Of a DNA stretch of 64,000 nt, positions 38 through 63,918 are shown in pieces. Positions within the stretch are counted from its first letter, which is position 1; each line of letters starts with the position of its first letter. A model generated the notes under the pieces. It was not told the origin of the DNA. It saw only the letters and a program-made list of their open reading frames with translations, and ran no database searches. The stretch spans positions 128,001-192,000 of the IMG/VR virus record IMGVR_UViG_3300035182_002389; one strand, given 5' to 3'. Origin of the DNA: a virus (Duplodnaviria; Caudoviricetes). A program made the position numbers and the translations under genes.

Positions 38-52
38 GACTTCTGGCAAGCC
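38..52. promoter_or_regulatory. Palindromic motif GACTT-CTGGC-AAGCC
   Basis: Matches recurring G[AG]CTT-N5-AAG[CT][CT]; upstream of the membrane protein/capsid operon. Confidence 0.65.
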
Positions 53-60
53 ACCGAGGC

Positions 61-75
61 GGCTTTGCACAAGTA
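61..75. promoter_or_regulatory. Palindromic motif variant GGCTT-TGCAC-AAGTA
   Basis: One mismatch to consensus, 23 bp after the previous copy. Confidence 0.5.
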
Positions 76-205
76 CCGGCTTTTTCTCAGCAGAAAAACG
101 CGATGTCGATTTTGGTTTCGAGCTTGTTGACGAACGAATCGTCGTGCGTCTCAATGGACTCCTGACCGGACACGTTCGTCCGAAACCATCAGGGAGTTCC
201 TCTTC

Positions 206-721
206 ATGGCCTTCGACCTGAGCTTCGGCTCTCTCGGCTCGGCTCGCGACAAGCTGGCGAGCTGGCACGACGAAAACAAGCTCGCCATCAGCCGCGCGAC
301 CGCCACCGCCGAGATCGGCGCTTCCGCCTTCGGCTTCGGCTGGCTCCACGGCCGCTACCCGAAGATGGACGTGTTCGGCGTCGACCTCTCGCTGCTCGCC
401 GGCGTCGGTCTCATCGGGCTCTCCTTCCTCGACAAGAAGGAAGAGGGGGAAGGCGGCGCGTACGGCCACCACCTCGCTTCGCTCGGCCAGGGCGCCCTCG
501 CGGTGTACCTCGCCAAGCTCGGCGCGGATTGGGGCGACAGCATGAACCCCGACTCGCCGCACTACTGCGGGATGTACACGCCGAGCGCCACGGCGCCCGC
601 GCAGTTCCAGCCCAAGGTCCCGCCGCCCGCCGCGGTCAAGGGCTACGACTACGCCCACACGGGCTTCAACGTCTCGACGGCCGACATCGGCCAGATGGCC
701 CAGCGCCGTAACTGGGGCTGA
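206..721 (+). CDS. Multi-pass membrane protein, candidate major virion membrane protein
   Basis: SD GGGAG; Gly-rich hydrophobic segments (IGASAFGFGWL, LSLLAGVGLIGLSFL, LGQGALAVYLAKLG); directly upstream of the capsid candidate. Confidence 0.65.
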   Translation: MAFDLSFGSLGSARDKLASWHDENKLAISRATATAEIGASAFGFGWLHGRYPKMDVFGVDLSLLAGVGLIGLSFLDKKEEGEGGAYGHHLASLGQGALAVYLAKLGADWGDSMNPDSPHYCGMYTPSATAPAQFQPKVPPPAAVKGYDYAHTGFNVSTADIGQMAQRRNWG

Positions 722-821
722 GACCGCTTCGAGGTCGCTCTCGGGCGACCAGTGATCGATGGGACGTCGGTGGTGGTGGGGAAGCTCGCCTCGTCCAAGG
801 CAACGTGACAGGAGAATCCAA

Positions 822-1385
822 ATGAACGGTCTCATCCAGAAGTTCGGCGCGCAGAAGGCTTCGGCGGCGACGGGCGCGCCCGGCGAAGGCTGCAACGTCC
901 CCGCGCAGATGCAGCAGGCGAATGCCGCCGCGATGTACCAGCTCCGCGTCAACGGGCTGACCTCGCCGGGCCTCGCCCCCAACACGACGGGCTGCTGCCC
1001 GCCCCCGGTCGTCCTCGACGCTTCGAGCCGCGACAGCAGCGGCGCGCAGCTCACGGTCGGCGCGAACGACGTGTTCAGCGTCACCGTGCAGCTCCAGGAG
1101 CCCTTCAAGGGCAACGACTTCGTCGTGGCTGCGCAGATCGCGCAGTACTTCGAGATCATGTCGATCAAGGTCGGCCGCGACGAGCAGCTCATCTCGGAAG
1201 CCGCGATCCCCGCCGAGGTCTTCTCGTCGGCCTCGCAGCGCCAGGTCGGCCTCGACATGCTCCCCTGCCCGACGTCGAAGCAAATCTTCGTCCAGGTGCG
1301 CAACGTCGACACGCAGGCCCGCTACTTCAAGGCCGCGTTCTTCGGCTCGTGCTTCGACTGCAACACGCCGCAGATCGGCGGCTGA
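822..1385 (+). CDS. Candidate single vertical jelly-roll major capsid protein
   Basis: GGAG SD before ATG 822; about eight alternating beta segments (FSVTVQL, FKGNDFVV, FEIMSIKVG, IPAEVFS, QIFVQVRN, YFKAAFFG) in the pattern of jelly-roll capsid domains. Confidence 0.6.
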   Translation: MNGLIQKFGAQKASAATGAPGEGCNVPAQMQQANAAAMYQLRVNGLTSPGLAPNTTGCCPPPVVLDASSRDSSGAQLTVGANDVFSVTVQLQEPFKGNDFVVAAQIAQYFEIMSIKVGRDEQLISEAAIPAEVFSSASQRQVGLDMLPCPTSKQIFVQVRNVDTQARYFKAAFFGSCFDCNTPQIGG

Positions 1386-1535
1386 GCAACCGCCTCGTGC
1401 GTGAGTGGGTCGCAAGGCCCGCTCCGCTGAGATGATGCGTAGACCCTGGTTGCGCTCGACGCTCGCGAGAGTTCGAGCGTACCCGGGGCCTTCGTGTATT
1501 TGCTGCGCGCATCGACCTTTTCGCAGGAGACTTCC

Positions 1536-3474: not shown

Positions 3475-4254
3475 ATGAGCGAAGGATACAACCCGAATCC
3501 CGGCTTCTTGTCCGTCGACACGACGTGCGAGTTGCAGGCAAAAAGCATCGACGGGCTCGATGAGGGCAGCGTCGCGTTTGTGCGCGAAGACGTCTTCGTC
3601 CCTTGGATCGACGCAAGCCCTGACAGCGGCCCCTACCACTACTACCGCCTCGCGTTCTTCACGTTCCCCGAGTTCCCGTTCTTCAAGGTCGGGCCCATCC
3701 CAAGGTCGTTCAGTCCGAAGGCGGCCGGCGCGAAGACGGCCGGCGCGAAGACCGCTCCTGCGGCTCCTTTCGTTCGGTATTCCGACTACCAGCGAGCCAT
3801 GGAGAAGGCAGCCTTCGACGTCTACAGCGCCGCTGTCGACGCCTTCGAGAAGGTCAACCCGGAAGCCGCAACCAAGATCCGTGCAAAGATGACGGCCAGC
3901 GCTGCTCTCGCTGCGACCAAGCCTTCCGCGAAGACTCCGAAGAACCCGCTGACCGCAAAGCGCGCCGCGGCCCAAGCGCCTGTCACCCCGCCCCTCGGCG
4001 CGACGGGTCCGAAGCAGCTTCTCACCAACCCCAAGCAGAGTCTCATCGATCCGCCTGCGGACCCGAGCCTCTGGACCTATGCGCCGTGGCCGGACGGATC
4101 CAGCATCCTCGCAACCTGTGCGAGCGGGCCCGCGCTTCAGCAAGACGGCGAAACCCTCTGCGGAAACGGCGTCGGCGAAGCTTCGCTGCAACGCTACGCC
4201 GGCACGAGTCGCTGGCTTCTGATCAGCGTCCAAGACGCCATCCTGTTCGACTAG
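3475..4254 (+). CDS. EGYNPFPG-family paralog 4 with an internal Ala/Lys/Pro-rich insertion
   Basis: MSEGYNPNPG..TCELQ N-half and ILATCASGP..SRWLLI C-half, separated by more than 100 low-complexity residues. Confidence 0.7.
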   Translation: MSEGYNPNPGFLSVDTTCELQAKSIDGLDEGSVAFVREDVFVPWIDASPDSGPYHYYRLAFFTFPEFPFFKVGPIPRSFSPKAAGAKTAGAKTAPAAPFVRYSDYQRAMEKAAFDVYSAAVDAFEKVNPEAATKIRAKMTASAALAATKPSAKTPKNPLTAKRAAAQAPVTPPLGATGPKQLLTNPKQSLIDPPADPSLWTYAPWPDGSSILATCASGPALQQDGETLCGNGVGEASLQRYAGTSRWLLISVQDAILFD

Positions 4255-5514: not shown

Positions 5515-5733
5515 ACGCGGGCGGTCTCGGGCCGCCCGTCCACTGACGAGGGATTCTTCAAGGGGCGTCCGAGGGGTGTTTCTCCCGTCCACCCCCATCA
5601 CCCGAGACGCTCCGCGTTCGGGCAAATCGGCGGGCCTTCCGGTCCCCCGCTCTCTTGCCCGCGCGCGAAACCTCGGCCGTCCCTTGAAGGACCCCTCGCC
5701 GATCTTCCACCGCATCCGCAGGACCCCCACTCG

Positions 5734-6161: not shown

Positions 6162-6176
6162 GACTTACGGTAAGCT
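6162..6176. promoter_or_regulatory. Palindromic motif GACTT-ACGGT-AAGCT
   Basis: Intergenic, about 10 bp before ATG 6187. Confidence 0.75.
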
Positions 6177-7848: not shown

Positions 7849-7884
7849 CCATCTGCGCCAGCCTTACGGTACACTGGAGACACC

Positions 7885-9134: not shown

Positions 9135-9149
9135 GACTTACGCTAAGCT
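9135..9149. promoter_or_regulatory. Palindromic motif GACTT-ACGCT-AAGCT
   Basis: Intergenic; identical to the copy at 24230. Confidence 0.75.
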
Positions 9150-9244: not shown

Positions 9245-10168
9245 ATGCCCCCCATCCTCATCGTCCTGATCGCCGGCGGCATCTTCGCCTACCTCATGTC
9301 GCGCGCTCCCAAAGGCGCGACGCCCATGGCGGGATCTACGCAAGGCTCCGCGCTCAGACGGTCCCCCGACACCGTTCGCATCGCTCCGGTGACGTACAGC
9401 GCGGCGTTCCCGCAGACGCTCACGAAGTCCGAGCAGATCCAGTTCCTCAAAGCCCTGCTCACCTACCGCATCATCGATCAGATGGGCGAGGTCACTCCCG
9501 CGCTGCCAATGGGCGTCACGGTCCCGAAGGATGGCGGGTCCGACGCTGCAACACTCTTGCCAGCAGCCTCTTCCGATGGCGTTGCGGCGCTGCCTATCGT
9601 CGCTGCCGCCAACCGCCTCGGTCACATCATCCTCGCGACCACGCCGCTCGACGGCGGCAAACGCGGACTCATCTCGCTCGGGCCGAAGGTCGACTACAAG
9701 CCCTTCGTGGCGCCCGGCTCGAACTGGTTTCTCTTCCTTCTACCAGGCGCCATCGAGCGCCTCGCAGACGAAGCCAAGATCACGCTGCCCGCGCCTTTTG
9801 GCCGCGGCGAAATCCTCGACGCATCCTTCGTTCAAGAGGCTCCGTCCTACGTCGCTCCCACCAGCACGCCCGCGTACGCGATGATGAAGGTCGAGCCTGC
9901 ACCGGCTCCGAAGACCGAAGACGACGTCGCGCAGATCGAGATCAAGGCGACCACGGCCGCCGACGATCTATCCGGGGCCGAGTTCAAGAACGAAGCCCAG
10001 GTTTGGGCTCGCGCGAAGGGGGCCTCCACCGATGAGGAGAAGGCCGCAGTCATCCCCGATCTCGTAGCCGACTCCGCGGTGCTCAAAGCCAAGGGATACG
10101 ATCTCGCGTCGAGCCAGTTCCTCACCCAAGCGACGACCTACGGGTACGTCACAACGCCGAAGGCCTGA
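9245..10168 (+). CDS. N-anchored membrane protein, paralog of 6187/7885
   Basis: MPPILIVLIAGGIFAYLMSR anchor; PGSNWFLFLLPG; KGYDLASSQF. Confidence 0.7.
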   Translation: MPPILIVLIAGGIFAYLMSRAPKGATPMAGSTQGSALRRSPDTVRIAPVTYSAAFPQTLTKSEQIQFLKALLTYRIIDQMGEVTPALPMGVTVPKDGGSDAATLLPAASSDGVAALPIVAAANRLGHIILATTPLDGGKRGLISLGPKVDYKPFVAPGSNWFLFLLPGAIERLADEAKITLPAPFGRGEILDASFVQEAPSYVAPTSTPAYAMMKVEPAPAPKTEDDVAQIEIKATTAADDLSGAEFKNEAQVWARAKGASTDEEKAAVIPDLVADSAVLKAKGYDLASSQFLTQATTYGYVTTPKA

Positions 10169-10720: not shown

Positions 10721-11710
10721 ATGGGCCCTCTTCCTATCATTCTCGGCGGCGGCGCTGTGCTCCTTGCGCTCGCGTTCGGCAAGAAGTCCTCGGTTGCGTC
10801 GCTGACCAGCAACCCTCAGCCGACCCCCTACACGCCGCCGAACATCCTCCCGCCGGGGCCCACGCCGCCGAAGCCAGTCCCTCCCCAGGATTTGCCCATG
10901 GGCACTTCCGGCGGCGCGAGCAAGGCCGAGATCACCTGCTTGCAGACGCAGCTCAGCATGCTCCGGTCGCCCGACGGCGCCGGATACAACACGGGCGGCA
11001 TCGACGGCGTCTGGACGAGCGGAACGTCCTCCGCGCTCGCGAAGTTCCAGAAAGATGCCGGCCTGCCGGTCACCGGAAGCATCGACGCGGCGACCCGATC
11101 GGCCGAAGCCTTCGCCATGTGCTTCTCGGCCAGCGCGCCGCAGCCTTCGAGCGGCCCCGACATGACCGGCGGCGCCACCGCGTACCAAATCCGCTGCCTC
11201 CAAAGCGCTCTGAACAACCGCTACAACGATCAGAACGTCAAGGAAGACGGTCTCTGGTCAAGCGCGCTCGGCACCGTCGTCTCTCGCGCGCAAACCGACG
11301 CGGGGCAGGCCGTCACCGGCCGCATCACCCCCGAGCTGCTCGCGCAAGCCGGATGCTCTGCTGCCGCGCCGACCGTGTATCCGTCGACCTTCGGCGACAC
11401 CATCGCGTGCGACGTCAACGGCAACATGCCTGACGCGAAGAAGACGGCGGACCTCAAGGCCGCCATCAACGCGTCGACCAGCGAAGCCGACCTCAACGAG
11501 TTCGCGAACTTCTGCCTCTCGCTCGACAAGCCCTGCACGGGTCTGCACGACTACGCGCTCGCCCGCATCGTCGGGATGCGCGAGAACAAGACCACCGAGC
11601 AAGTCCTGCAAGAGCAGCACGACGCCGCCGTCGCTGCCGCGCAACAAGCGGGAGGCGTCGTCAAGGACGCTGCTGGCAACGTCATCGACACCTTCAAGAA
11701 CATGTTCTGA
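10721..11710 (+). CDS. N-anchored protein with two PG-binding domains and a helical C-terminus
   Basis: IDGVWTSGTSSALAKFQKDAGLPVTGSIDAAT; EDGLWSSALGTVVSRAQ..VTGRIT. Confidence 0.85.
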   Translation: MGPLPIILGGGAVLLALAFGKKSSVASLTSNPQPTPYTPPNILPPGPTPPKPVPPQDLPMGTSGGASKAEITCLQTQLSMLRSPDGAGYNTGGIDGVWTSGTSSALAKFQKDAGLPVTGSIDAATRSAEAFAMCFSASAPQPSSGPDMTGGATAYQIRCLQSALNNRYNDQNVKEDGLWSSALGTVVSRAQTDAGQAVTGRITPELLAQAGCSAAAPTVYPSTFGDTIACDVNGNMPDAKKTADLKAAINASTSEADLNEFANFCLSLDKPCTGLHDYALARIVGMRENKTTEQVLQEQHDAAVAAAQQAGGVVKDAAGNVIDTFKNMF

Positions 11711-11963: not shown

Positions 11964-11978
11964 GGCTTACCGCAAGCC
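11964..11978. promoter_or_regulatory. Palindromic motif GGCTT-ACCGC-AAGCC
   Basis: Intergenic, about 22 bp before ATG 12000. Confidence 0.75.
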
Positions 11979-11999: not shown

Positions 12000-12644
12000 A
12001 TGTCGCACACCCGTGAAGAAGTTCTGACCCGCGCGATGGACGTCAACGCGCAGATGCAGGAAGTCGGCAAACTCGCCTTCTCGCTCTGCTTCGACCTTCA
12101 AGGGGCGGTCGCTACGGGCATGGCAGCCATCGCCAACATGAGCCCGACGCTCACCGAGGTCGCCGCCGTTCAGGCCTCGTTGCTCGGCGACATGATCCCG
12201 CAAATCGCCGTCAGCGTTCGGCGATGCAAGTCGCTGAACACGGTTCAGGCCGGCGGCGACGCCGCTTTCGTCTCGAAGTTCACGTCGCTGCTCGCGCGCT
12301 GGAAGCTCTTCACCCGCCGCATCCAGGTGTTCAACCTCTTCGGCCAAGGTCCCGACAGCGCGTGGGACACCGTCGGCGTCTACGAGAACATCCTCGCGAA
12401 GTATCGCCAGGAAGTGCAGCTCCTCGCGCCGACGACCGTGGCCAACATCGTCGAGCAGGAGGCGACGCCTCCGAACGTCCTGCCCGAGCCCGTCGACGCG
12501 AGCGCGGCTCCTTCGACCCAGATCGTCGCAGGCGCCGCAGGCGCAAGTGTGCCGGTCGCCGGCACGCCGTGGGCTCTCATCGGCGGCGCGGCCATCGGCG
12601 GCGCAGCGCTCACCTATCTGCTGACGAAGCGTTCGTCCCGATAG
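12000..12644 (+). CDS. C-terminally anchored helical protein, paralog A of a tandem trio
   Basis: HTREEV..; RWKLFTRRIQVFNLFGQGPDSAW; C-terminal TM plus KR. Confidence 0.75.
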   Translation: MSHTREEVLTRAMDVNAQMQEVGKLAFSLCFDLQGAVATGMAAIANMSPTLTEVAAVQASLLGDMIPQIAVSVRRCKSLNTVQAGGDAAFVSKFTSLLARWKLFTRRIQVFNLFGQGPDSAWDTVGVYENILAKYRQEVQLLAPTTVANIVEQEATPPNVLPEPVDASAAPSTQIVAGAAGASVPVAGTPWALIGGAAIGGAALTYLLTKRSSR

Positions 12645-12684
12645 GCGACCGAAACCTCGACCCTTCACGCGAAAGAACAAGACC

Positions 12685-13401
12685 ATGCCTTTGCTCGACA
12701 CCCACTCGCGTGAAGAGGTCCGCGCCAAAGCGGCGAACGTCGACGCCTCGATGAAGGAGTTCGAGAAGATCGTCCTCTCGCGGATGGCCTTCGACCCGAG
12801 CGCCATCGGTTCGGCGGTCAATGCCGCGCTCGCTCCCGACGCTCCCAACGCCGGCGAGTCCGCCAGCATCCTCGCTGCCAACCTCTCCGATACGGCGCCG
12901 TACATCGGCCCCTCCGTTCAACGCCGCGCCACCATCAGCGCTGCCCAGGCGACCAAGGAGACCGACTTCGCCACGAAGTTCATGGCCTTCTACGCGCGAT
13001 GGAGCCTCTTCTACAAGCGCATCCAAGGGTTCGATCTCTTCGGGCCGTCCCCCGACGCCGCGTGGAAGATCGTGACCGACTACGAGACGAACCTCGGCAC
13101 CTACAAGCAGGAAGCCGCGCAGATCATGGCCGCGTCGGCCGCTACGCCCGGCCCTGTGTTCGGGCCGCCCATCAACCCGACTCCGGTCGTTCCCGGCCAA
13201 CCTGCACTGCCGGGGCAGCCTGCGACGCCCGCGCTCCCCGGGGCAGGGCCCGCCCTGTCCTCGGGCATCCCGTCGTGGCTCCTCATCGGCGGCGTGGCTG
13301 TCGGCGGCGTCCTGCTCGCCCACTACCTGACCAAGTCGAAGGGGCCGACCAGCGGCCAGTCCCTGCCTTCCGCGAGCTTCGCGAGCTACCGAGGCCGGTA
13401 G
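12685..13401 (+). CDS. C-terminally anchored helical protein, paralog B
   Basis: HSREEV..; RWSLFYKRIQGFDLFGPSPDAAW; C-terminal TM. Confidence 0.75.
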   Translation: MPLLDTHSREEVRAKAANVDASMKEFEKIVLSRMAFDPSAIGSAVNAALAPDAPNAGESASILAANLSDTAPYIGPSVQRRATISAAQATKETDFATKFMAFYARWSLFYKRIQGFDLFGPSPDAAWKIVTDYETNLGTYKQEAAQIMAASAATPGPVFGPPINPTPVVPGQPALPGQPATPALPGAGPALSSGIPSWLLIGGVAVGGVLLAHYLTKSKGPTSGQSLPSASFASYRGR

Positions 13402-16630: not shown

Positions 16631-16651
16631 CAAGCGTAGGATGGTGGCACC

Positions 16652-47298: not shown

Positions 47299-48798
47299 AT
47301 GGGCCTGCAAATCATCGGAACCTCGGGCATTGGCTACATCGCCGACGTCAACATCGATCAGCAGTTGCAAGTCAACACGCCCATCACCATCACGGGCCTC
47401 GCTGTTGGACGCGGTCCCGGATTTCTTGCGCTGGTATCCGAAAACGATCCGGGCACCATCACGGGCGAGCGCTACCTGCTGCCGCCGGAGACGGATGACG
47501 ACTACCGTCTGCGCGTCGGCGTCGACTCGCTCAAGTTCTTCGAGCCGTGGGCGCAGTCGACCATCAACTCGGGCACGTGGTCGCTCGTGTCGACGACGCT
47601 CCTCACCACCGTGACCGGCGGATACTGCAAGCTCAACAGCTCGGGACTCACGACGGCCAACGGCGTCGCGCGCATCATGACGCTGCGCACGTTTCCGTCC
47701 TACTCGACCTACCCGATCTACGTCACCTTCCAGTTGCAGGTGAACGCTTCGGCCCTCGGCATCCCAAACACGCAATGGGAGGCCGGGCTCTGCCTCAACG
47801 GCACGACTGCAAACACCGCAACACCAACCGACGGCATCTACCTGCGCATGTCGAGCTTGAGCGTGCTTACGCTCGTCTCGAACTTCGCCGGTGCAGAAAC
47901 GACATCGGCACCCATCAACTACGCCGGACTCGCGGTCAACACCAACTACGAAGTCCTCATCACCGTCACCCCGGGCAGCTTGGAGCTGTGGATCAACAAC
48001 GTCCTCTACGCAGAGGTCGCTACACCAACCGCGCTCCCCGACTTCACGCAGTCACTCGCGCTGCCGTTCAACGCTCGTATCTACAACACAGCGACACCGC
48101 CCGCTTCTGCAACGACCCTCGCCATCGGCGCCATCGAGGTCTCTTACGGTGGCATGAACAACGCTGCGAGCTTCCCCGATCGCGTCGCGATGAGTGAGCA
48201 GGGTGGCTATCAGACGCAGTCGGGAACCATTGCTCCTGCACAAACTGCGCAGTGGGCCAACAACGCTGCTCCTGCCACCATCACCCTCGCTTTTCCCGGC
48301 TCCAACACAGCCGCGGCGTACACCACCTTCGGAGGCGCATTCATCGTGGCCGCGCCCGCAGGATCGGAAAACGACGCGCTCCTGTTCGGATTTCAGGTTC
48401 CCGCCAACGCTGCGGGAGCCATGAATCGAAATCTACTCATTCGAGGCGTGCGCATCCGAACCGTCAACATCGGAGCTGCGGTCGCGACGACCGCAACCGT
48501 CTTGCAGTGGGGCATTGCCGTCGGTTCCTCCGTGGTATCTCTCGCCGCCACAAGCGATACGACCACGACGTCCTCGGCAGTCAAAAGCCCGCGTCGCAAA
48601 GCGCTCGGCATGCAGGGCTTCATCGTCGGCGCTGCCATTGGCACCGAAGCTCAGCTCATCGACTGCTACTTCGGCGATTCGCCCCTCTTCGCAGAACCGG
48701 GAAGCTTCGTGCAGATCATGATGCGCATCCCTGTCGGCACTGCGACGGCATCGCAGCTTCTGCGCGGCATCGTCGACATCGACGCGCAGTACGAGTGA
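47299..48798 (+). CDS. Lectin-like beta-sandwich spike protein, paralog A
   Basis: Aligns over its full length with 48829 (GRGPGF..ETDDDYRLR.GVDSL.FFEP..TINSGTWSL..MSEQGGYQTQSG..VDIDAQYE). Confidence 0.75.
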   Translation: MGLQIIGTSGIGYIADVNIDQQLQVNTPITITGLAVGRGPGFLALVSENDPGTITGERYLLPPETDDDYRLRVGVDSLKFFEPWAQSTINSGTWSLVSTTLLTTVTGGYCKLNSSGLTTANGVARIMTLRTFPSYSTYPIYVTFQLQVNASALGIPNTQWEAGLCLNGTTANTATPTDGIYLRMSSLSVLTLVSNFAGAETTSAPINYAGLAVNTNYEVLITVTPGSLELWINNVLYAEVATPTALPDFTQSLALPFNARIYNTATPPASATTLAIGAIEVSYGGMNNAASFPDRVAMSEQGGYQTQSGTIAPAQTAQWANNAAPATITLAFPGSNTAAAYTTFGGAFIVAAPAGSENDALLFGFQVPANAAGAMNRNLLIRGVRIRTVNIGAAVATTATVLQWGIAVGSSVVSLAATSDTTTTSSAVKSPRRKALGMQGFIVGAAIGTEAQLIDCYFGDSPLFAEPGSFVQIMMRIPVGTATASQLLRGIVDIDAQYE

Positions 48799-48828: not shown

Positions 48829-50337
48829 ATGGCACTAAAAATCACCGGAACGTCGGGATATACTGCCGACATTGATGCAGACGGCCGACTCCTAATCAAC
48901 GGCCCCATTGTTGATTTTGGAGGACCAAGTCCGCTCCTTCCCGGACGTGGTCCGGGATTCTTCGCTATCGCCGCCGAAACCGATCCGGGAGCGTACACCG
49001 CGTCTCGCTTGATACTTGGTTCCGAAACGGACGATGACTACCGCCTGCGAACTGGCGTCGATTCTCTTCAGTTCTTCGAGCCGTTCGCGCTCATCACGAT
49101 CAACAGCGGCACGTGGTCGCTCACGACCTCGAACATGACCGTGGTCGTGGGAAGAGGATCGGCGACGCTCAACAGCAACGCAATCCTCACTTCCGGTTCC
49201 TACGCAGTCCTCAACACCCTGCGAAGCTTCGCGCTCTACAGCTCGTTCGAGACGCGAGTTGTCTTCCAGATGATGATCCAAACGGGCGCCGCCGCAGGAT
49301 CGGCGGCGCCACTCTTCATCGCAAATACCGTCTGGGAGGTCGGACTCTACATCGCCTCGGGCGTCAGTGCCCCGACCGACGGCGTCTTCGTCCGCATGAA
49401 TGATGTGGGACAGATGTCTCTCATCGCGAGCTTCAACGGCACAGAGACTAGCGCAGTCGTTACGACCACGGACATGCTCCCGTTCACCAGCTATCAGTAC
49501 GAAGTCAACATCCTGCCAGAGCACATCGAGTTGTGGATCGATAACGTTCTTCGCGCATCCATTCGCGTGAACGTTCCAGCTCCTTTCACCGTACCGGGCC
49601 CAACCATCTCGCCCGCTCTGCCGTTCACAGCCCGCGTCTACAACAGCGGCGTCGCAACGCAGTTCACAAGGCTCGCTATCGGCCCCATCGAAATCAGCAC
49701 AGGAGCGATGCAAAACTCGACACGATTTTACGATCGTGTCGCGATGAGCGAGCAGGGCGGCTACCAAACGCAGTCTGGCAACACCACGCCCGCGCAAACT
49801 GCGAACTGGACCAACAGCCTCGTTCCGGGCACCGCGGCGCTCGCCAACGCAACAGCCAGCTACACGACCATGGGCGGCGCGTTTCTCTTTGCCGCTATTG
49901 CAGGCGCGGAAACCGACTACTGCCTCTTCGGGTTTCAGGTTCCCGCCGACTCTGTCGGCGGCATGAACCGGGATCTCGTCATCCGAGCCGTGCGCATTCG
50001 GACGGAAGCAACCGGCGGAAACGTCGCCGCAGCCGGGGCTGTTTTTCAGTGGGGCATCGCCGTCGGGTCAAACGCCGTCTCGCTCGCAACCGTGGAGACC
50101 ACCACTACTGCATCCGCCGTCAAAGGGCCGCGCCGCAAGGCGCTCGGGATGCAGGGCTTCCCCGGCTCCTCCGTCATCGGCACCCGAGCACAAATGATCA
50201 ACTCCTTCTTCGGCGATTCGCCGTTGTACTGCGAGTCGGGAGCGTTCGTGCAGATCATTCTCCGCGTCATCGTTGGGACAGTCGGAGGCGGATCGTTGTT
50301 TCGCGGCACCGTCGACATCGACGCGCAGTACGAGTGA
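48829..50337 (+). CDS. Lectin-like beta-sandwich spike protein, paralog B
   Basis: Tandem duplicate of 47299. Confidence 0.75.
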   Translation: MALKITGTSGYTADIDADGRLLINGPIVDFGGPSPLLPGRGPGFFAIAAETDPGAYTASRLILGSETDDDYRLRTGVDSLQFFEPFALITINSGTWSLTTSNMTVVVGRGSATLNSNAILTSGSYAVLNTLRSFALYSSFETRVVFQMMIQTGAAAGSAAPLFIANTVWEVGLYIASGVSAPTDGVFVRMNDVGQMSLIASFNGTETSAVVTTTDMLPFTSYQYEVNILPEHIELWIDNVLRASIRVNVPAPFTVPGPTISPALPFTARVYNSGVATQFTRLAIGPIEISTGAMQNSTRFYDRVAMSEQGGYQTQSGNTTPAQTANWTNSLVPGTAALANATASYTTMGGAFLFAAIAGAETDYCLFGFQVPADSVGGMNRDLVIRAVRIRTEATGGNVAAAGAVFQWGIAVGSNAVSLATVETTTTASAVKGPRRKALGMQGFPGSSVIGTRAQMINSFFGDSPLYCESGAFVQIILRVIVGTVGGGSLFRGTVDIDAQYE

Positions 50338-51236: not shown

Positions 51237-51656
51237 ATGGCCCACTTGAACCAGGCCTCGATGCCGCAGGCCGCGTGCGTGCTCGTCTTCGAGCCCACGA
51301 CCCATCGCATCCTTGCGGTCTCTCGCCGGAACGACCCGACCGCCTTCGGGCTGCCTGGCGGAAAGGTCGACCCCGGCGAAACGCCCATTCACGCCGCAAG
51401 GCGCGAGATGCTCGAAGAGACGGGCTTCATCGTCAGGCTCGACCAACACGTCCTGACCGCGGTTTGCTTCGGAGAAGTCCCCCACCTCACGACCACCTAC
51501 CTCGCCACCATCACTGGATGGAACGGGCCATCGAACGAGAGCGGTCGCGTTGCGTGGGTCACGTGGGGCGATCTCTTTCAAGGGCCTTTCCGCGACTACA
51601 ACCGGCAGCTCTACGAGATCGTTCGCAGACTTTTTCCGAACCTTCGGCAAGCGTGA
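51237..51656 (+). CDS. Nudix hydrolase
   Basis: Nudix box GGKVDPGETPIHAARREMLEETG. Confidence 0.9.
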   Translation: MAHLNQASMPQAACVLVFEPTTHRILAVSRRNDPTAFGLPGGKVDPGETPIHAARREMLEETGFIVRLDQHVLTAVCFGEVPHLTTTYLATITGWNGPSNESGRVAWVTWGDLFQGPFRDYNRQLYEIVRRLFPNLRQA

Positions 51657-51663
51657 GGATCGT

Positions 51664-51966
51664 ATGACCTGGCTCTACGGCAAGACGGGCACGTCCTTCT
51701 TCGACGTCTGGTCGATCGTCCACTTCTGCTTTTGGGTATTCGCAGGCTCCGTCGCTTGGGGTGCGAAGGTGCAGAAGTGGTGGGCGCTCGCTGCGGGCGT
51801 CCTCTTCGCGCTCGCGTGGGAGTGCTTCGAGCGATACGCGGAAAAGCGCTGGCCGCAATATTGGCTCCACCCCGAGAGCTGGTGGAACTCGTGGATCAGC
51901 GACATCCTCATGTGCGTCCTCGGCGTCCTCTTCATCTGGGCGCTCCTAGACAGGTACGCGCGGTGA
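51664..51966 (+). CDS. Small multi-pass membrane protein (D.WS..H / WE..E / NS..D motif)
   Basis: Three hydrophobic helices with conserved-looking polar residues. Confidence 0.65.
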   Translation: MTWLYGKTGTSFFDVWSIVHFCFWVFAGSVAWGAKVQKWWALAAGVLFALAWECFERYAEKRWPQYWLHPESWWNSWISDILMCVLGVLFIWALLDRYAR

Positions 51967-52571
51967 CCGTCGAGGCGTGGGCGGACATTGCGGGAAAACC
52001 GAACGACGCCGTCTACGTCGGCTTTTCCACAGTCCCAAGCAACCCTATCTCCAGGATCGTTCGGGCCGTCACTGGATCGGACGCGAGCCACGTCTGGCTC
52101 GTGGTAAGCCTCTTCGGCGTCAGGTGCGTCGTTGAAGCCGGAGATTTCGGATTCTTTCCCTCGATGACCTTCGATCGTTTCAGGAAAAAGAATCAGGTCG
52201 TCGACTTTTTCCCAATCCGGCACGACCTCCGCGCCGGCCTTCATTGGGCGGCAAACCACTTCGGAGAGAAGTACGACTACGGCGGCCTAATCGGCATGGC
52301 GCCCGTCATGCTCGGACGCTTCTTTCACCGACGATGGCGCAACCCGTTCGGCTCGCGTAATGCCCTGTTCTGCTCCGAAGCCATCTCAGAAATCTTCAAG
52401 CGATCCAGGGTGCCCGGCTTCCAGAAGTTTGTTCCAGAGGAAACCACCCCAGAACAGATTCGGACCGTGCTCCGCAACGCCGAGTTTCAGAGGCTCAGCG
52501 AAAGCGTTCGCCAGACTCGCGACAAGTCGAAGGTTTTGGTAGCATCACGAGCTAAGGAGGACCGCACATGA
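51963..52571 (+). CDS. Permuted papain-like amidase/peptidase (YiiX/C92-like)
   Basis: His before Cys: SHVWL ... YDY ... LFCSE; GTG start overlapping the upstream TGA. Confidence 0.75.
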   Translation: MTVEAWADIAGKPNDAVYVGFSTVPSNPISRIVRAVTGSDASHVWLVVSLFGVRCVVEAGDFGFFPSMTFDRFRKKNQVVDFFPIRHDLRAGLHWAANHFGEKYDYGGLIGMAPVMLGRFFHRRWRNPFGSRNALFCSEAISEIFKRSRVPGFQKFVPEETTPEQIRTVLRNAEFQRLSESVRQTRDKSKVLVASRAKEDRT

Positions 52572-52629
52572 TCGGGAAAATGCTCGAATGGCGTTCGGGG
52601 TTGCTGCGTCGCTGCGGCAACGGGTGCAG

Positions 52630-53010
52630 ATGATGGCCGTCGGAGGGGTCCTTGCCGCTTTGCTCCCGTGGGCGCTCGCCGTCTTCGGGCTGACCGTGAT
52701 CATTGCGATCTCGCGCGTCATGCGGCCCCTCCGGCGGCTCTTTCGCCCCGTCGCGCCCGACGGCGTCACCGAGCTGCCCGTTGGCCGCGTCCGCGCGTTC
52801 TTCGGCCATCTCATCCACTGCTGCATGTGCGTTGGAACCTGGGTTGGGTTCGTCTACGCCCTCCTGGGCTTCCAGATCATCCCGGAGCTTCCTCGCCTTG
52901 GCGTCATCCACATTCCCGGGCTCCACTACGCGCTCAACGCGTTCGCCGCAACGGGTGTATGCTGGTGCCTGCACGTGATCCTCACCAGGCTCGGCGCCGA
53001 CAAGCTCTAG
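52630..53010 (+). CDS. DUF1360-like membrane protein
   Basis: TM segments around LIHCCMCVGTWVG; start uncertain (52588 or 52630). Confidence 0.6.
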   Translation: MMAVGGVLAALLPWALAVFGLTVIIAISRVMRPLRRLFRPVAPDGVTELPVGRVRAFFGHLIHCCMCVGTWVGFVYALLGFQIIPELPRLGVIHIPGLHYALNAFAATGVCWCLHVILTRLGADKL

Positions 53011-53065
53011 CCGGTCGTCTGCTCCTCGATCGCGACCGCGGTCGCCCGCCACAAGGAACTCCGCC

Positions 53066-54703
53066 ATGACCGAAGGCTACAATCCGTTCACAGGCTTCTT
53101 CCTGTCGCCGAACCTCTGCTCCTTGTCCAACGAGGACACGAGCGGCCTTCAGAACGGCTGCCTCGCGTACGTGGAGGATGTCAACCGCTACTACCGCTAC
53201 GCGGCCAACGGGACCGACGCGCCGCTCGACGGCGTCTACGTGGTCTCGACGTGGACGGGCCCCATCAACCCGGGCTGCGACCCGCTGCCGCCCGGCCTCA
53301 ACGCGCACGGTACCGACAAGCCGCGATGGGTCCTCACCAACCTCGCCGACGCGATCGGGACCACGGCCAACTCGACCAAGTGGTTCATCGACGCCGTCTT
53401 CGGCAACGACAACAACATCGGCACCGTCCCGAGCAAACCGCTCCAGACGTTCCGCGAGCTGGGTCGGCGCTGGAGGAACGGCGCGACCTACAACACCGAC
53501 TACATCTTCGTCACGATCCTCTCGGATCACTTGCTCGACGACGACGTCATCGACATCTGCCGACCGCTCGGCGACCCCAACCAGAGCCAAAACTTCCCCA
53601 TCATCATCCAGGGAAAGCGTCAGGATCCTGTCAGTTCCGGCGTCATCGGACCAGTCTCGGTCGGCGTCTACCACGCCGCTCCCGTGTCTCCTGGCATCGC
53701 AGCCGGAGGCCACGGCGTTCTGCTCGACATCGGCGCTCTCGGCGCGGCGTATCCGAACAGCTTCCTGCAAATCACCCGCCCCGGCGTTCTCCTCAATGCG
53801 TGGATGTGCTTGGTCGGAGTCTACAACTCCGGCACACCCCCGCTCGACTACTCGACTCCCATCGTTCTGCAAGCGGTCGCTCCGTCGCCTGCCATCCCAC
53901 CGGACCCCGCCCTCAACCAAGACTCTCCCGTTCCAGGCGACACCTTCAACGTTCTCGGGGACGGATGCAGCATCCCCGACACCATCGTGCTCGACATTCC
54001 GTCGTTCGCCGAGGTCTGGTTCTACGACGTCGAGCTGCGGCAGGGGACGCCCACCACGCCGACCGCCGTGCAGAACCTTCAGTCTGGCGCGATGCGCTTC
54101 TACCGTTCTTCGGGATCCTCGGCGAATCCTGCACGGCTCTACACCGGGCCGAACTCCCAGGTGTCCCTCTACTTCATGGGGAGCACCACCAAGGACATCC
54201 AGGTCCTCATGCGAAACCCGGCCACCTCGGCCGGACAAAGCAGCTACTCGATCAGCGGCGGGCTTCGCCTGGACGCTTCCCTCTACGACAACAATCAGGG
54301 CATCGACGCCAACGCCGTCGACTTCTGGAACGATTCCGTCTTCGCGCCAGGCGCCTACGTCACCCTCCAAAGCGGGCGCATCCTCACGGTCGTCGACCTG
54401 TGGATCCAGTACAACGTCGCAACGAGCATCCGCAGCTCTGGCGGCGTCATCTTCTTCAACAACGCGCTCTACGGCAGCGGCAACCTTGCCGACATCATGC
54501 AACTCGGCGAGTACACCAAGGGCGTGTACAGCAGCGCTGCGCAACTCACCGTCGCTGCCAACCTTGGCGCCGCTCAATCGGGCGGCATCAACTACCTCAA
54601 CGGCGTCTCGAAGACGTTCGTTCCCGCCGACCTGCCGTTCGTCTCCATCGCCACAGGTGCCGACTCGCAATCCGGCATGATCAAGCGAGGCGGCGGCATC
54701 TAA
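53066..54703 (+). CDS. EGYNPFPG-family paralog 8 with long beta-helix-like spike C-terminus
   Basis: MTEGYNPFTG..CSLSN..GCLAYV..STWTGP..H..PRWVL, then WFIDAVFGNDNN.G..KPLQTF (start-of-tailspike-type motif). Confidence 0.75.
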   Translation: MTEGYNPFTGFFLSPNLCSLSNEDTSGLQNGCLAYVEDVNRYYRYAANGTDAPLDGVYVVSTWTGPINPGCDPLPPGLNAHGTDKPRWVLTNLADAIGTTANSTKWFIDAVFGNDNNIGTVPSKPLQTFRELGRRWRNGATYNTDYIFVTILSDHLLDDDVIDICRPLGDPNQSQNFPIIIQGKRQDPVSSGVIGPVSVGVYHAAPVSPGIAAGGHGVLLDIGALGAAYPNSFLQITRPGVLLNAWMCLVGVYNSGTPPLDYSTPIVLQAVAPSPAIPPDPALNQDSPVPGDTFNVLGDGCSIPDTIVLDIPSFAEVWFYDVELRQGTPTTPTAVQNLQSGAMRFYRSSGSSANPARLYTGPNSQVSLYFMGSTTKDIQVLMRNPATSAGQSSYSISGGLRLDASLYDNNQGIDANAVDFWNDSVFAPGAYVTLQSGRILTVVDLWIQYNVATSIRSSGGVIFFNNALYGSGNLADIMQLGEYTKGVYSSAAQLTVAANLGAAQSGGINYLNGVSKTFVPADLPFVSIATGADSQSGMIKRGGGI

Positions 54704-55540: not shown

Positions 55541-56035
55541 ATGCTCCTCCGCAAGTGTCAGGCGCCAGGCTGCGAGCACACGTTCATCGTGGGCGCACGC
55601 AACGCGCATCAGAAGTACCACTGCCGAAGTTGCGGAGAGGCCGACCGGAAACGGTGGATGCGCCCCGAGCGGCAGCAATACATGCGCGGATACATGCGCG
55701 ACTACCTTGTCGGCTACGTTCGTCCTGAAGACCGGGCCAACGACGGCGAGGAGATGCCCAGCGCCATGGTTGCCGGCGCGGAGCCCGTCAGCGAACAAAA
55801 GGCAACGCCCAATCAGGAGATCCTGATCGAGTCGCCCATCCTGACAACGCACCATCTAACAATCGCGCCTTCGACCAAGCCCGACCTCAGCCTCTCGTTT
55901 CTCAAGACTTCGAGCGCACGAGAAAAAGATTCAGAGCCCGCCACGGAGGCCGATTCTGCGCCCAAGACCTACGATGACGAAGCGTCGGGGCACGTCCTGC
56001 TCTCGCGCAAGAAGCGGCTTGTCAAAAGTCGCTGA
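55541..56035 (+). CDS. Zinc-finger protein, possible DNA-binding regulator
   Basis: CQAPGC.HTF..QKYHC.SC, then a basic helix. Confidence 0.6.
   Translation: MLLRKCQAPGCEHTFIVGARNAHQKYHCRSCGEADRKRWMRPERQQYMRGYMRDYLVGYVRPEDRANDGEEMPSAMVAGAEPVSEQKATPNQEILIESPILTTHHLTIAPSTKPDLSLSFLKTSSAREKDSEPATEADSAPKTYDDEASGHVLLSRKKRLVKSR
56016..56030. promoter_or_regulatory. Palindromic motif GGCTT-GTCAA-AAGTC
   Basis: 14 bp before ATG 56045. Confidence 0.7.
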
Positions 56036-58676: not shown

Positions 58677-58691
58677 GACTTTCCGTAAGCC
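58677..58691. promoter_or_regulatory. Palindromic motif GACTT-TCCGT-AAGCC
   Basis: Intergenic, 18 bp before ATG 58710. Confidence 0.75.
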
Positions 58692-61063: not shown

Positions 61064-61411
61064 GTGTCGCCCTACGCCATGTCTCCGTACGCCTACGTCA
61101 TCGAATACGGGCTCGCGCTCGGCACCATCACGCCCAGCGAAGTCCGCGACATCGGGCTCGACCCGAGAGACTTCTGGCCCGACTTCTCGCAAGTCGTTCC
61201 GAAGCCCGGCGTTCGGCAGACCAGCTACAAGGGCTCCAAGGTCACGACTCCGATGAAGCCGCCCTACCCCGCGAACGATCCCGTCCTGCAAGCCGTCGCG
61301 TACGGCTTGCAGAACGGAATCATCGCGATCAAGCAGGTCGACTGGCTCGGGCTTCACCCTGCCTACTTGGTTCCGTCGAACGTTCACTTCCCGAAGCTGC
61401 GGACCGAGTAG
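61064..61411 (+). CDS. Small protein with an internal duplicated YGL..G.I...V..LG..P motif
   Basis: Two copies of the motif; start is GTG 61064 or ATG 61079. Confidence 0.65.
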   Translation: MSPYAMSPYAYVIEYGLALGTITPSEVRDIGLDPRDFWPDFSQVVPKPGVRQTSYKGSKVTTPMKPPYPANDPVLQAVAYGLQNGIIAIKQVDWLGLHPAYLVPSNVHFPKLRTE

Positions 61412-61487: not shown

Positions 61488-62537
61488 ATGGACTCGAAGA
61501 CTCCCTACATCATCGGCGGCCTGGCCGTGCTCGGCGTCGGCGCCTACTTCCTGCTCCGCAAGACCCCGGTCACCGCTGCGGCGACTCCGGGAACTACCGC
61601 GCTGCCCGCCGGTGGAACTCCCGTCGCCGGAACGCCCGCCACGACCGTCCCGCAGGCCATGCCTGCCGGGTGGCCGACCAGCATTCCGTGGCCGCCGCCC
61701 GGCCTGCCCGCCGGCACGGCGCTGCCGACCGCCAAGCCTGCATGGTGGCCCGCCGGCATCACCTACCCGCCGACCGTTCCGACGAACGTCTCGAACGTCC
61801 CGAGCAGCCTGCCCGGCACCACGACGTCTCCCCAGCCGCCGGCCGAAGCCAAGTTCAACCGCCTCGGCGCGACCCCCGATCAGGAGGCGCAGGCCAAGCA
61901 GAACATGTGGCACGTGCTTCAGATGGTCGCGCTTGCCGACGCAACCGCGAATCCTGCCACGCTCGACGCGACGCACACCGTCGGCCTCGGTTCGAGCGAC
62001 CCGAGCGGCACCTCCGCAGCGCAGAGCATCGCAATGCTCAACGACGCTCTCAACGGCGGCGGACAGTACGTCCTCATCAGCGTTCCCCCGACCGACGGAT
62101 CGGGCAACGCCATGCCTCCGACCTTCCTGTTCACGAACCTCGAAGGCGCCATGTCTTCCGGTCTCGGCGCGGGCGTCGGCGGCCCGTGGACGCTCTTCCT
62201 CACCCCGAACGAGTGGCGCACCGTCGAAGCCGCCGTCGTCGCACAGGGAGCGCCTCCCGCCGTTCCGACTCTTCCGCAGAGCGCTCCGACGGGGTGGCCG
62301 GCGGGCGTCGCATGGCCCCCGACCGGATGGACCCCGGGGCAGCCCGTTCCCTCGACGGCTCCCTCGGGCTGGCCGGCCAGCATCCCCTGGCCTCCGACCT
62401 CCGCGAGCATCCCGGGATTCACCCCGCCCGCCGGAACGCCCCAGATCCCGCCCAGCATCCCGACCGATCCGACGCAGTACGCCGCCTACATCGCCCAGCT
62501 CAAGGCCATGGGCCTCCCGGTCCCTCCCGGCGCCTGA
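61488..62537 (+). CDS. N-anchored Pro-rich membrane protein with repeated P.GWP..[IV].WPP motifs
   Basis: YIIGGLAVLGVGAYFLLRK; WTLFLTPNEW; AGGAG SD. Confidence 0.75.
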   Translation: MDSKTPYIIGGLAVLGVGAYFLLRKTPVTAAATPGTTALPAGGTPVAGTPATTVPQAMPAGWPTSIPWPPPGLPAGTALPTAKPAWWPAGITYPPTVPTNVSNVPSSLPGTTTSPQPPAEAKFNRLGATPDQEAQAKQNMWHVLQMVALADATANPATLDATHTVGLGSSDPSGTSAAQSIAMLNDALNGGGQYVLISVPPTDGSGNAMPPTFLFTNLEGAMSSGLGAGVGGPWTLFLTPNEWRTVEAAVVAQGAPPAVPTLPQSAPTGWPAGVAWPPTGWTPGQPVPSTAPSGWPASIPWPPTSASIPGFTPPAGTPQIPPSIPTDPTQYAAYIAQLKAMGLPVPPGA

Positions 62538-62633
62538 TTCGACCACGCGTTTTCGGTGGAGCCCTCGACGTCGCGCTTTGCGGCGTCGCAGGGCTCCATG
62601 ATGCTGCGGGGTTCGCCCGCCAAGAGAAACCTC

Positions 62634-63245
62634 ATGGCCGACAGCTTCGAGTCCATCCCAGCATCCGCCCGCAAGGAAGCGTCGAACACGCTGCTCTACG
62701 TTTTGCTCGGCGGCGCCGCTCTTGCCGGCGTCGCTTGGTTTCTCACGAAGAAAGAACCGCCGCTCGTTGCTGGGCCGGACAACCAAACCAGACCGCTGCC
62801 GCCGCCTTCCGTGCCAGCGCCGCCAAGCGTTCCCGAGATGACCAACGCCGAGAAGGTGTTGCTCTGGCGGCAGCTCGCCTCTGCGCAGCTCGAAAACGGA
62901 TCTGCTCCGAACACGACCAACATCATCGGGCGAACGCCCGCGTCCAACGAAGCGACCACCTCCGCGCTTCGCGACATCGTCTACCGAAATCGATCCGTCG
63001 CCGAAACTACGGCGGATGCGCAAACCGTCACGATGTCGGCGCCGAACCTTGCGCCTGCTGCGGCCCAGCCTGGCAAATACGTTCTTGTCTCCTTGAACGG
63101 ACTCGTCTTGTGGTTCGCCACCCTCGACGAAATCAAGAACGAAGTGCTCACGGCATCGAAGAACTACCGGATCTTTCTCAAGCCTGACGAATGGAGCACT
63201 GTTCAGGCTCTCGCTGGCGCCCCGTACGCGGCGGTCCTCCCATGA
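62634..63245 (+). CDS. N-anchored membrane protein related to 61488
   Basis: LLYVLLGGAALAGVAWFLTKK; YRIFLKPDEW. Confidence 0.7.
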   Translation: MADSFESIPASARKEASNTLLYVLLGGAALAGVAWFLTKKEPPLVAGPDNQTRPLPPPSVPAPPSVPEMTNAEKVLLWRQLASAQLENGSAPNTTNIIGRTPASNEATTSALRDIVYRNRSVAETTADAQTVTMSAPNLAPAAAQPGKYVLVSLNGLVLWFATLDEIKNEVLTASKNYRIFLKPDEWSTVQALAGAPYAAVLP

Positions 63246-63421
63246 AAGCCCCCTCGCTCACTCGCCGAGTCGGAACCGAAAGCACGGCCCACACGGGCGC
63301 GTGGACCATGGGCTGCGAAGAAACCGTCTCCACGCCAGTCATGCTCATTCACGTGGGCGCAGCTCTCGTTCTTTACGCAATCGCCTATGAGCGCGGCGCG
63401 GCTTCTGAGAAAAAGACCTGA
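63242..63421 (+). CDS. Small TM protein with PSL..RRVG leader
   Basis: MKAPSLTRRVGT..AHTGA..TM; ATGA overlap. Confidence 0.55.
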   Translation: MKAPSLTRRVGTESTAHTGAWTMGCEETVSTPVMLIHVGAALVLYAIAYERGAASEKKT

Positions 63422-63468
63422 CCAAACTTCGGCGCACTTCCAACGCCCACGACTGACGGAGTTTTACG

Positions 63469-63894
63469 ATGCCCTGCCCCAACCCGAGCTGCCCGTACGC
63501 AAACGACCCAAGCCACTTCTGCCCATGCTCCTCGGCTGCTGTCGGTAGGGGCGGCGGGGGAGGGGGCGGAGGACATGGAGGCGGCGGAGGAGGCCATGGA
63601 GGCGGCGGAGGCGGCGGAGGCCACGGCGGCGGAGGGCATGGCGGAGGTGGAGGCCGCGGGTGGGGCGGCGGAGGGTGGGGAAACTACGGGCTGAGGCCCA
63701 GGCCGCACGGGTACTACGGCTGGTACGCAAACGGATACTGGTGGCCGGGCTGGTGGGACTACCCGAACGAGCTGAACGATACGAGCAGCCTCCTCGCACT
63801 CGCCAGAGCCTTGCAGAACGGCGCCATCACAGGCGCGCAGGTGCGAGCCATGGGGATCAGCCCCAACGCCCTCATCGCCATCCTCAGCCCGTAG
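63469..63894 (+). CDS. Cys-rich leader, Gly/His-rich and Trp/Tyr-rich small protein
   Basis: CPNPSC..CPCSSAAVG, then poly-Gly, then ALQNGAITGAQV..GISP. Confidence 0.7.
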   Translation: MPCPNPSCPYANDPSHFCPCSSAAVGRGGGGGGGGHGGGGGGHGGGGGGGGHGGGGHGGGGGRGWGGGGWGNYGLRPRPHGYYGWYANGYWWPGWWDYPNELNDTSSLLALARALQNGAITGAQVRAMGISPNALIAILSP

Positions 63895-63903
63895 CGGCTC
63901 GCC

Positions 63904-63918
63904 GACTTACCGCAAGCC
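63904..63918. promoter_or_regulatory. Palindromic motif GACTT-ACCGC-AAGCC
   Basis: Intergenic, 18 bp before ATG 63937. Confidence 0.75.

Follow-up and report, generated by a model that had tools for sequence, protein, structure and literature searches.

A 15-bp palindrome, GRCTT-N5-AAGYY, is repeated throughout a 64,000-nt stretch of DNA (hereafter, the window) from a virus of the Caudoviricetes (Duplodnaviria), and it is probably the promoter-linked operator of one dimeric regulator that acts mainly as a repressor. The window corresponds to bases 128001–192000 of the linear, 202,518-bp IMG/VR virus record IMGVR_UViG_3300035182_002389 (65% G+C; estimated completeness 94%). Searching the window with this pattern returned 19 sites (35 strand matches), compared with 0.59 ± 1.1 sites and a maximum of 6 in 100 dinucleotide-preserving shuffles, in line with the hand estimate of an initial annotation that fewer than one copy should occur by chance. 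All 18 strict copies listed in that annotation are present, and a nineteenth, at position 61181, had been overlooked. The near copies reported at 61 and 47208 both exist and carry one mismatch each, whereas the degenerate copy proposed at 7861 amounts to one half-site at best, lying beside a TACACT box.

The repeat is not confined to the window. With the stricter pattern GRCTT-N5-AAGYC, the whole genome contains 54 sites per strand versus 1 for a reversed-pattern control, and 64–65 sites are found when A is permitted at position 1 or T at position 15. A symmetric position weight matrix (PWM) built from these 64–65 strict sites detected 79 sites in the genome at a score of at least 11, and 82 at a score of at least 10 against 4 in the reversed sequence. 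The full-genome scan with controls that had been recommended for this motif therefore gave 64–79 sites versus 1–4. Since 19 sites occur in the window where 0.59 are expected and the genome counts lie far above their controls, we conclude that the feature is real and non-random. The sites are evenly spread, at 0.29 per kb between 0 and 80 kb, 0.38 between 80 and 128 kb and 0.32 between 128 and 202 kb. The left arm codes for replication and nucleotide metabolism functions (RtcB, RlaP, a UvrD-type helicase, SSB, ThyX, a deoxynucleoside monophosphate kinase and a D12 methylase), and the window contains lysis- and fibre-type genes with collagen-like fibre, GH25, SLT and peptidoglycan-binding domains. 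Because site density is even from the left arm with its replication-type genes through to the right end, the suggestion that the palindrome marks a late or structural regulon was not borne out.

Gene calling, by a codon-usage model derived from this same genome, gave 337 genes that cover 89% of the sequence. Among 64 strict genome sites, 42 are intergenic and 4 lie across a gene end, where about 7 would be expected by chance. The window shows the same placement, as had been claimed: 15 of 19 sites are intergenic, 2 lie across a gene end, and of the remaining two one is 5 nt ahead of a stop codon and the other (61181) is within a gene. A distance of 7–25 bp to the following ATG, described before as frequent, holds for 9 of the 19 window sites with start codons as predicted. 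The type of gap matters: sites occupy 15 of 21 divergent gaps, 36 of 293 tandem gaps and none of 22 convergent gaps. Since divergent gaps hold no gene end and convergent gaps are the expected places of terminators, the site goes with transcription starts and not with transcription ends. The lack of positional enrichment that would have spoken against a regulatory site was thus not observed, as judged by predicted gene starts.

Many gene starts in this genome carry a second signature. The arrangement TAnnnT-N6/7-ATG occurs 62 times (33 with the 6-nt and 29 with the 7-nt spacing), compared with 1–12 occurrences, mostly 5–9, at other spacings, and the TAnnnT box often has a TG one base ahead of it. 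These are predicted promoters of leaderless mRNAs that consist of a −10 element only, often an extended −10. They have no −35 consensus, and the signature suggests a host whose promoters likewise need just a −10 element, such as a member of the Actinobacteria or Deinococcota. The palindrome is linked to these promoters. Of the 52 genes with a leaderless-type start, 23 are preceded by a palindrome whose centre lies at −15 to −63, usually at −27 to −36. Conversely, sense-strand TAnnnT boxes are enriched only downstream of the palindrome, 18 of 67 beginning 12–23 nt from its centre over a background of about 0.5 per 6-nt bin. Several individual sites are each shared by a predicted pair of divergent leaderless promoters (at genome positions 45100, 94960 and 115560, among others), and in the window sites at 6162, 9135 and 24230 the right-hand half, TAAGCT, doubles as a −10-like box.

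The anatomy of the site was examined by pooling its halves. The full site is a 17-bp dyad, cGRCTT(G)YSR(C)AAGYCg, in which the half-site c-G-R-C-T-T-(G>A>T)-Y is arranged around a central S. At the mirror pair 2/14 the counts were 22 for G.C, 16 for G.T, 21 for A.C and 6 for A.T, matching the product of the half-site frequencies and leaving the Watson–Crick A-T combination as the rarest; mirror pairs 6/10 and 7/9 likewise vary independently. The flanks add no pairing (2.29 of 8 positions complementary, compared with 2.19 at random), a TTTT run lies within 15 nt at only 1 of 65 sites, and predicted folding of the 19-mer is weak (mean −4.6 kcal/mol). When sites were oriented by the downstream gene, informative positions were confined to 17 bp and no orientation bias was detected, the mixed forms A/C and G/T being found 18 and 17 times, respectively. 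These features fit a two-fold symmetric protein dimer and not an RNA or DNA hairpin: the halves are independent, the flanks contribute no pairing and the T-run is missing. Compensatory changes, T-runs and location at the ends of convergent genes, by which a hairpin or terminator would be recognized, were not found. Copies within genes lie in differing frames and encode unrelated peptides, indicating that they are kept at the DNA level, and a peptide-level repeat was rejected on the same grounds. Together with the preference for divergent over convergent gaps and the downstream −10 boxes, the independent halves and the lack of orientation bias agree with the earlier proposal of an operator for a symmetric dimeric regulator, which is here a prediction.

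Relatives of the virus were found through a 499-aa protein encoded at window positions 47299–48798, which has at least 384 metagenomic homologues and a 51% identical tandem paralogue at 48829–50337. Its AlphaFold model (predicted local distance difference test score 81.5) consists of two beta-sandwich domains, the best PDB structure matches being lectin/GH16-type folds and the TM4 gp23 receptor-binding domain; this modelled fold neither shows nor excludes a capsid role. A 14-kb contig (L016, 77% amino acid identity) contains five sites of the form GRCTTC-N3-GAAGYC, with a G-to-C change at position 6 relative to the present virus. All five are in gaps between called genes, one of which also contains an overlapping reverse-strand open reading frame. 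A 75% relative (L061) has one site, and L060 and L059, at 54–56%, have GACTTACCAGAAGTC and a copy with one mismatch, in each case with a TAnnnT box 11 nt on. The L059 site is just upstream of a DUF1360 gene, the L060 site is at the syntenic position, and a weaker copy in our window at 52514 occupies the matching place. No enrichment of the motif was found in 0.5 Mb of relatives from genome collections or in 1.1 Mb of IMG/VR relatives, all at 48% identity or less. Conservation in related contigs, put forward as a check on the motif, therefore holds at 54–77% protein identity and is lost at or below 48%. A DNA search of a phage collection gave no match, an IMG/VR search with a single 726-aa protein found no relatives, and a scan of IMG/VR for the exact consensus returned 75 single matches, about the estimated chance level, none with more than two degenerate copies. 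Judging from these sequences, the motif is specific to a narrow clade, which favours either a binder encoded by the virus or a host peculiar to that clade.

The group itself looks widespread. Relatives of the 499-aa protein (L020–L058) are filed in metagenome-assembled genomes of Rickettsiales, Myxococcales, Hyphomicrobiaceae, CPR bacteria and Gemmatimonadota, some on contigs of 120–460 kb, and are probably mis-binned virus contigs or prophages. Relatives of the virus are common in sediment and microbial-mat metagenomes.

How might a regulator bound at the palindrome act? Measured from the TTG within the site to the −10 box, the implied spacers are 8, 10, 12, 13, 13, 14, 17, 17, 17, 19, 19, 20, 20, 22, 22 and 25 bp (16 values), with no helical periodicity of 10–11 bp. 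Such variation is far more than sigma region 4 could accommodate. A −35 element, which requires a fixed spacer of 16–18 bp, was rejected, as was a sigma-specific promoter. The mean best −35 score was 2.97 for promoters without a palindrome and 3.13 for those with one, compared with 2.59 for random sequence. Promoters without a palindrome share the −10 and TG features and likewise have no −35 consensus; since the two classes look alike, the palindrome is an added control element and does not stand in for a promoter part that is lacking. One fixed position is required by activators of the CRP/FNR class II, Mu C or P2 Ogr types, whereas repressors that work by occlusion typically have sites at any point of the stretch covered by polymerase. 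Because the position of the site relative to the −10 box varies freely, repression by occlusion or roadblock is the most likely mode of action. A promoter-proximal activator at a fixed position, the other possibility raised by the initial annotation, is unlikely given that the distance to the −10 box varies continuously, with centres from −15 to −63.

We envisage that one symmetric dimeric protein would dock on the palindrome, each subunit contacting one GRCTT half; the centres of the two halves are 10 bp apart and so present consecutive major grooves. The sites would lie on or beside the core of host-type, −10-only and often leaderless promoters that head gene blocks along the whole genome: most would overlap the −35/spacer region, some the −10 box, and some, in a relative, would lie just past the start site. 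Binding would repress by occlusion or roadblock, and one factor could in this way switch some 50–70 transcription units together. A more speculative addition, which we regard as improbable, is that the roughly 70 operators per genome copy form a sink that titrates the repressor during replication and so times late expression.

The binder is most likely encoded by the virus. Pfam was run on nearly all predicted proteins, and selected single families were searched across the six frames of the genome. The best candidate is a 177-aa winged-helix protein with MarR_2/HTH_27 matches, encoded outside the window at genome positions 12550–13083, since MarR is the sole family found that acts as a symmetric homodimer on inverted repeats; that this protein is the binder is a tentative assignment and less likely than not. 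For the protein itself MarR_2 scored 26.5 bits, where the cut-off is 27, and for the genome search 28.9 bits; HTH_27 scored above its cut-off. Among 285 HMMER matches, the best 150 are mostly about 140–200 aa long and align at query residues ∼5–140, over most of the MarR fold. The PDB sequence matches are all MarR regulators (PcaV, HosA, SlyA and MepR), and the protein has the wing motif DGRKKRLRLT. A homodimer model scored 0.53 versus 0.00 for the best of three controls and so passed a mark that 21 of 30 solved homodimers, but none of 23 monomers, attain, a pass that may reflect memory of solved MarR dimers; the modelled interface is formed by N- and C-terminal helices (residues 3–19 and 112–142), as in MarR proteins. 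The palindrome copy nearest to this gene is kept in 98%-identical strains although the flanks differ. A word search for homologues returned only the 98% twin.

The other proteins considered as binders fit less well. An extracytoplasmic function (ECF)-type sigma factor, a DNA-binding protein encoded on the minus strand at window positions 22287–22865, was named by the initial annotation, but the divergent gap that would hold its promoter has no site. The protein at 55541, named there as a zinc finger, has a sub-threshold Pfam match only. Nothing connects either protein to the palindrome. The third suggestion, regulators outside the window, is better served by the MarR-family candidate. A 385-aa protein with two unlike helix-turn-helix domains of the HTH_3 family (genome positions 199203–200360, minus strand; L012:7203–8360) fits a symmetric site poorly, having two different recognition helices; its gene is in a stretch of lower coding score that was skipped by the gene caller, and the minus-strand block to which it belongs is headed by a palindrome at 202236. 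A Pfam search also revealed an RHH_4 protein on the minus strand at genome positions 101736–101939 (region 101706–102199), which, together with a Gp49/HigB-like match of the same Pfam batch (position not located), possibly forms a toxin–antitoxin pair; three GNAT acetyltransferase genes are present in the same region, genome 100–126 kb. About 60 individually chosen proteins, including neighbours of the sites, yielded no regulator in Pfam or PHROG searches, and HTH_17, GerE and RHH_1 were not found in the genome by the single-family six-frame searches.

Several observations weigh against a repressor operator or against the MarR-like candidate as its binder. Promoters and gene starts are all predicted with a crude gene caller, and some starts are certainly wrong. 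A search for RNA sequencing runs that contain this virus found none. The TANNAT-like hexamers noted earlier downstream of the sites are present at 16637 and 20895, but only about half of the window sites have a TAnnnT box within 50 nt downstream, the other half having no recognizable one. About 15 strict genome sites, mostly in the left 80 kb, are within genes, where they may be roadblocks, belong to unrecognized promoters or have another role. The choice of repression over activation is drawn from site position only. No tyrosine integrase was found in the record (estimated as 94% complete), serine recombinases and plasmid-type lysogeny not having been searched, and a lysogeny repressor is therefore not obviously called for. 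With regard to the MarR-like gene, no palindrome was found upstream of it, the nearest copy being 6 nt past its stop codon, and its only non-trivial homologue (41%) is encoded by contigs of 74% GC that are probably bacterial and have another palindrome upstream of the gene. Finally, roughly 85% of the tested proteins have no Pfam or PHROG match, so that a regulator of an unrecognized kind is quite possible.

Of the alternatives to a repressor operator, an activator site or −35 surrogate, at which a dimeric factor would recruit host RNA polymerase to −10-only promoters, deserves the most attention, unlikely as we consider it. The commonest site centre, −27 to −36, is the place of a −35 element, the promoters of this virus have no −35 consensus, and the half-site includes a TTG. 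A possible factor is a 569-aa chimeric protein encoded on the plus strand outside the window (genome positions 51439–53148; L007:11439–13148), composed of two Cys-rich modules, a helix-turn-helix, a charged coiled coil of about 130 aa and a C-terminal domain. Its helix-turn-helix is nearly identical in pattern to primary-sigma region 4.2 (…RSRERVRQME…KLRH), and a palindrome is located 78 nt upstream of its start; a word-based search for homologues returned only the chimera itself. The palindrome would then be its landing pad: as a coiled-coil dimer, the viral protein would connect host polymerase with −10-only promoters and so replace the −35 contact. We regard this specific version as improbable. 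(In this scheme the Cys modules are taken as zinc-binding and the C-terminal domain is likened to that of the RNA polymerase alpha subunit.) Known activators of this type, however, need a fixed position, and spacers of 8–25 bp without helical periodicity do not provide one; palindrome-free promoters with the same −10 and TG features imply that the site replaces nothing that is missing; two region-4 domains on TTG triplets 3 bp apart would be expected to clash; and the conserved G-R-C outside the TTG is left unexplained. It is also possible, though we give it little weight, that a global regulator or nucleoid protein of the high-GC host reads the site, which the virus uses or tolerates. The viral binder is so far a candidate only, and relatives with as little as 54% protein identity retain an unaltered motif core. 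Yet the motif is not enriched in ∼1.6 Mb of more distant relatives, the single matches to the exact consensus in IMG/VR occur at about the estimated chance rate, and we know of no bacterial regulator with this consensus.

The remaining explanations dispense with transcriptional control at the DNA level. A role in genome organization or condensation, in replication or in recombination between repeats could account for the even spacing of about one site per 3 kb and for the ∼15 copies within genes, and a similar 17-bp palindrome present in 34 copies in Cluster O phages was judged unlikely to be transcriptional, with recombination observed between copies (PMC4351075); the marked preference for gene starts and divergent gaps, together with the directional link to −10 boxes, makes such a role very unlikely here. 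An RNA-level element, that is, a terminator, a processing site or a hairpin in the 5′ untranslated region, would exploit the self-complementarity of the sequence. It finds some encouragement in the L016 contig, where three of the five copies (within L016:3470–3560, 5527–5610 and 9300–9400) form the tips of longer inverted repeats that are rich in G+C and run into T-rich tracts; these copies lie 15–24 nt downstream of TAnnnT-like boxes. Since two L016 copies are 15–16 nt downstream of a −10 box, the site can lie in a transcribed leader in that relative, where it may double as leader hairpin and operator. In the present genome, sites occur in 15 of 21 divergent gaps, where upstream transcripts do not end, and in no convergent gap, covariation was not found while A.C mismatches are frequent, and neither an extended stem nor a T-run accompanies the weakly folding 19-mer, so that an RNA-level element is already largely refuted and, in our estimation, the least credible of these explanations.

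A repressor operator scattered over many promoters has precedents. In phage P1, with its C1 operators, and in the Streptomyces phage phiC31, with its conserved inverted repeats, one repressor acts through some 17–20 scattered operators on many promoters; both phages are temperate, and the P1 operators are asymmetric. The copy number in the present virus is three to four times higher than in these two phages. In keeping with a dispersed operator regulon, the repeated site is found far above chance and is concentrated at promoters and the heads of gene blocks (46 of 64 sites are non-coding or straddle a gene end). The dispersed phage operator circuit is thus already known, and it is this virus and the site sequence that are new. 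The L5 (Cluster A) stoperators similarly provide one phage repressor with more than 20 dispersed sites, in promoters and short intergenic gaps, for genome silencing; they are asymmetric 13-mers bound by a gp71 monomer and depend on orientation relative to transcription (PMC9283540). The present site, in contrast, is symmetric and without orientation bias, so that the asymmetry that defines stoperators is absent, and signs of lysogeny, an integrase included, were not found (tyrosine integrase searched).

The closest published look-alike is the palindrome of Cluster O mycobacteriophages, TGTTCGG-N3-CCGAACA, for which a dimeric regulator was suggested as binder and a transcriptional role was considered unlikely (PMC4351075). 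Both are clade-specific perfect dyads present in more than 30 copies per genome, partly intergenic and partly within genes, without orientation bias, in high-GC phages with SigA-type and partly leaderless promoters. They differ in sequence and in geometry (7-3-7 there, 5-5-5 here), and most Cluster O sites are away from predicted promoters, whereas the present sites are strongly linked to gene starts and −10 boxes. In geometry the nearest parallel is MexR of the MarR family, which binds inverted GTTGA pentamers 5 bp apart (GTTGA-N5-TCAAC) overlapping promoters (PMC9892617). The present site has the same 5-N5-5 arrangement of inverted half-sites one helical turn apart, overlapping predicted promoters, as expected for a MarR-type operator. 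In both cases one homodimer would span two consecutive major grooves, operators overlapping core promoters would repress by occlusion, and the present virus encodes a MarR-fold protein with a predicted homodimer. It differs from the MexR system in having 65–80 sites per genome rather than one or two, in the sequence of the site and in that the promoter of the candidate itself has no site.

The palindrome and the TAnnnT-N6/7-ATG signature together provide a first map of the transcription units of a virus that is almost wholly uncharacterized, and suggest that its host uses −10-only, leaderless promoters. If our interpretation is correct, one operator acting on some 50–70 promoters would be among the largest single-factor regulons described for a bacterial virus; what stands out is how large the regulon would be and how novel the virus is, the mechanism itself being ordinary. 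The palindrome also offers a simple experimental handle, requiring one probe and few candidate proteins.

The individual window sites, to which no strand is assigned, illustrate the range of arrangements. Leaderless promoters with a site centred at −31 are predicted twice: the palindrome at 17950–17964, directly past a tRNA-Gln gene (17865–17937, anticodon UUG), is followed by TACTCT at 17976 and an ATG at 17988, and that at 20869–20883 by TACGAT at 20895 and an ATG at 20907. The site at 16616–16630 precedes TAGGAT at 16637 and an ATG at 16652. At 24230–24244 the right half TAAGCT (24239) is itself the predicted −10 box for a leaderless ATG at 24252, placing the centre of the site at −15; at 6162–6176 the same −10-like half (6171–6176) is followed 10 nt on by the ATG at 6187, and at 9135–9149 it lies at 9144–9149. 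Downstream of 2545–2559 a leader separates the TAGAAT box at 2587 from a gene at 2636, and 31180–31194 is followed by TAGGAT at 31231 and a gene at 31285. Downstream of 36550–36564 there is a promoter-like pair, TTGACA and TATCGT, and a gene from 36600; within 36565–36610, the distance from the TTGACA hexamer to the TATCGT box is only about 13 bp.

The other sites differ in their surroundings. No TAnnnT box was found downstream of 11964–11978, which has an ATG 21 nt on at 12000, and no recognizable −10 box accompanies the intergenic site at 29296–29310. The site at 27641–27655 has a TAGGCT box 12 nt upstream of it and an ATG led by a Shine–Dalgarno sequence 22 nt on, at 27678. A gene starts at 43185, 34 nt from the site at 43136–43150, and an ATG at 58710 is 18 nt from that at 58677–58691. 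The site at 39958–39972 lies across the end of the gene at 38837–39964, while that at 56016–56030 is in the final codons of the gene at 55541–56035, with an 860-aa gene 14 nt on, at 56045. The copies at 61181–61195 and 63904–63918 are within the gene at 61064–61411 and intergenic, respectively. A divergent gap contains the site at 38–52 (GACTTCTGGCAAGCC) and its one-mismatch second copy at 61–75, the two centres being 23 bp apart.

Weaker copies were recovered with the PWM, again without strand. The highest-scoring, GACTCGCGACAAGTC at 52514–52528 (score 13.4), is followed by a TGgTAGCAT box at 52540 and a DUF1360-type gene at 52624. GACTTACGGTAAGTG at 47208–47222 (12.8) and GACTCGTCGTAAGTC at 34670–34684 (12.4) are at the ends of the genes at 46786–47247 and 34329–34688, respectively. 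GGCTCGCGACAAGCT at 241–255 (12.3) is 35 nt inside a gene starting at 206, and GGCTCGTGGTAAGCC at 52096–52110 (12.5) is also within a gene. Elsewhere in the genome, longer G+C-rich hairpin elements are present at positions 3974–4040 and 11256–11400, and the one at 3974 directly adjoins a palindrome.

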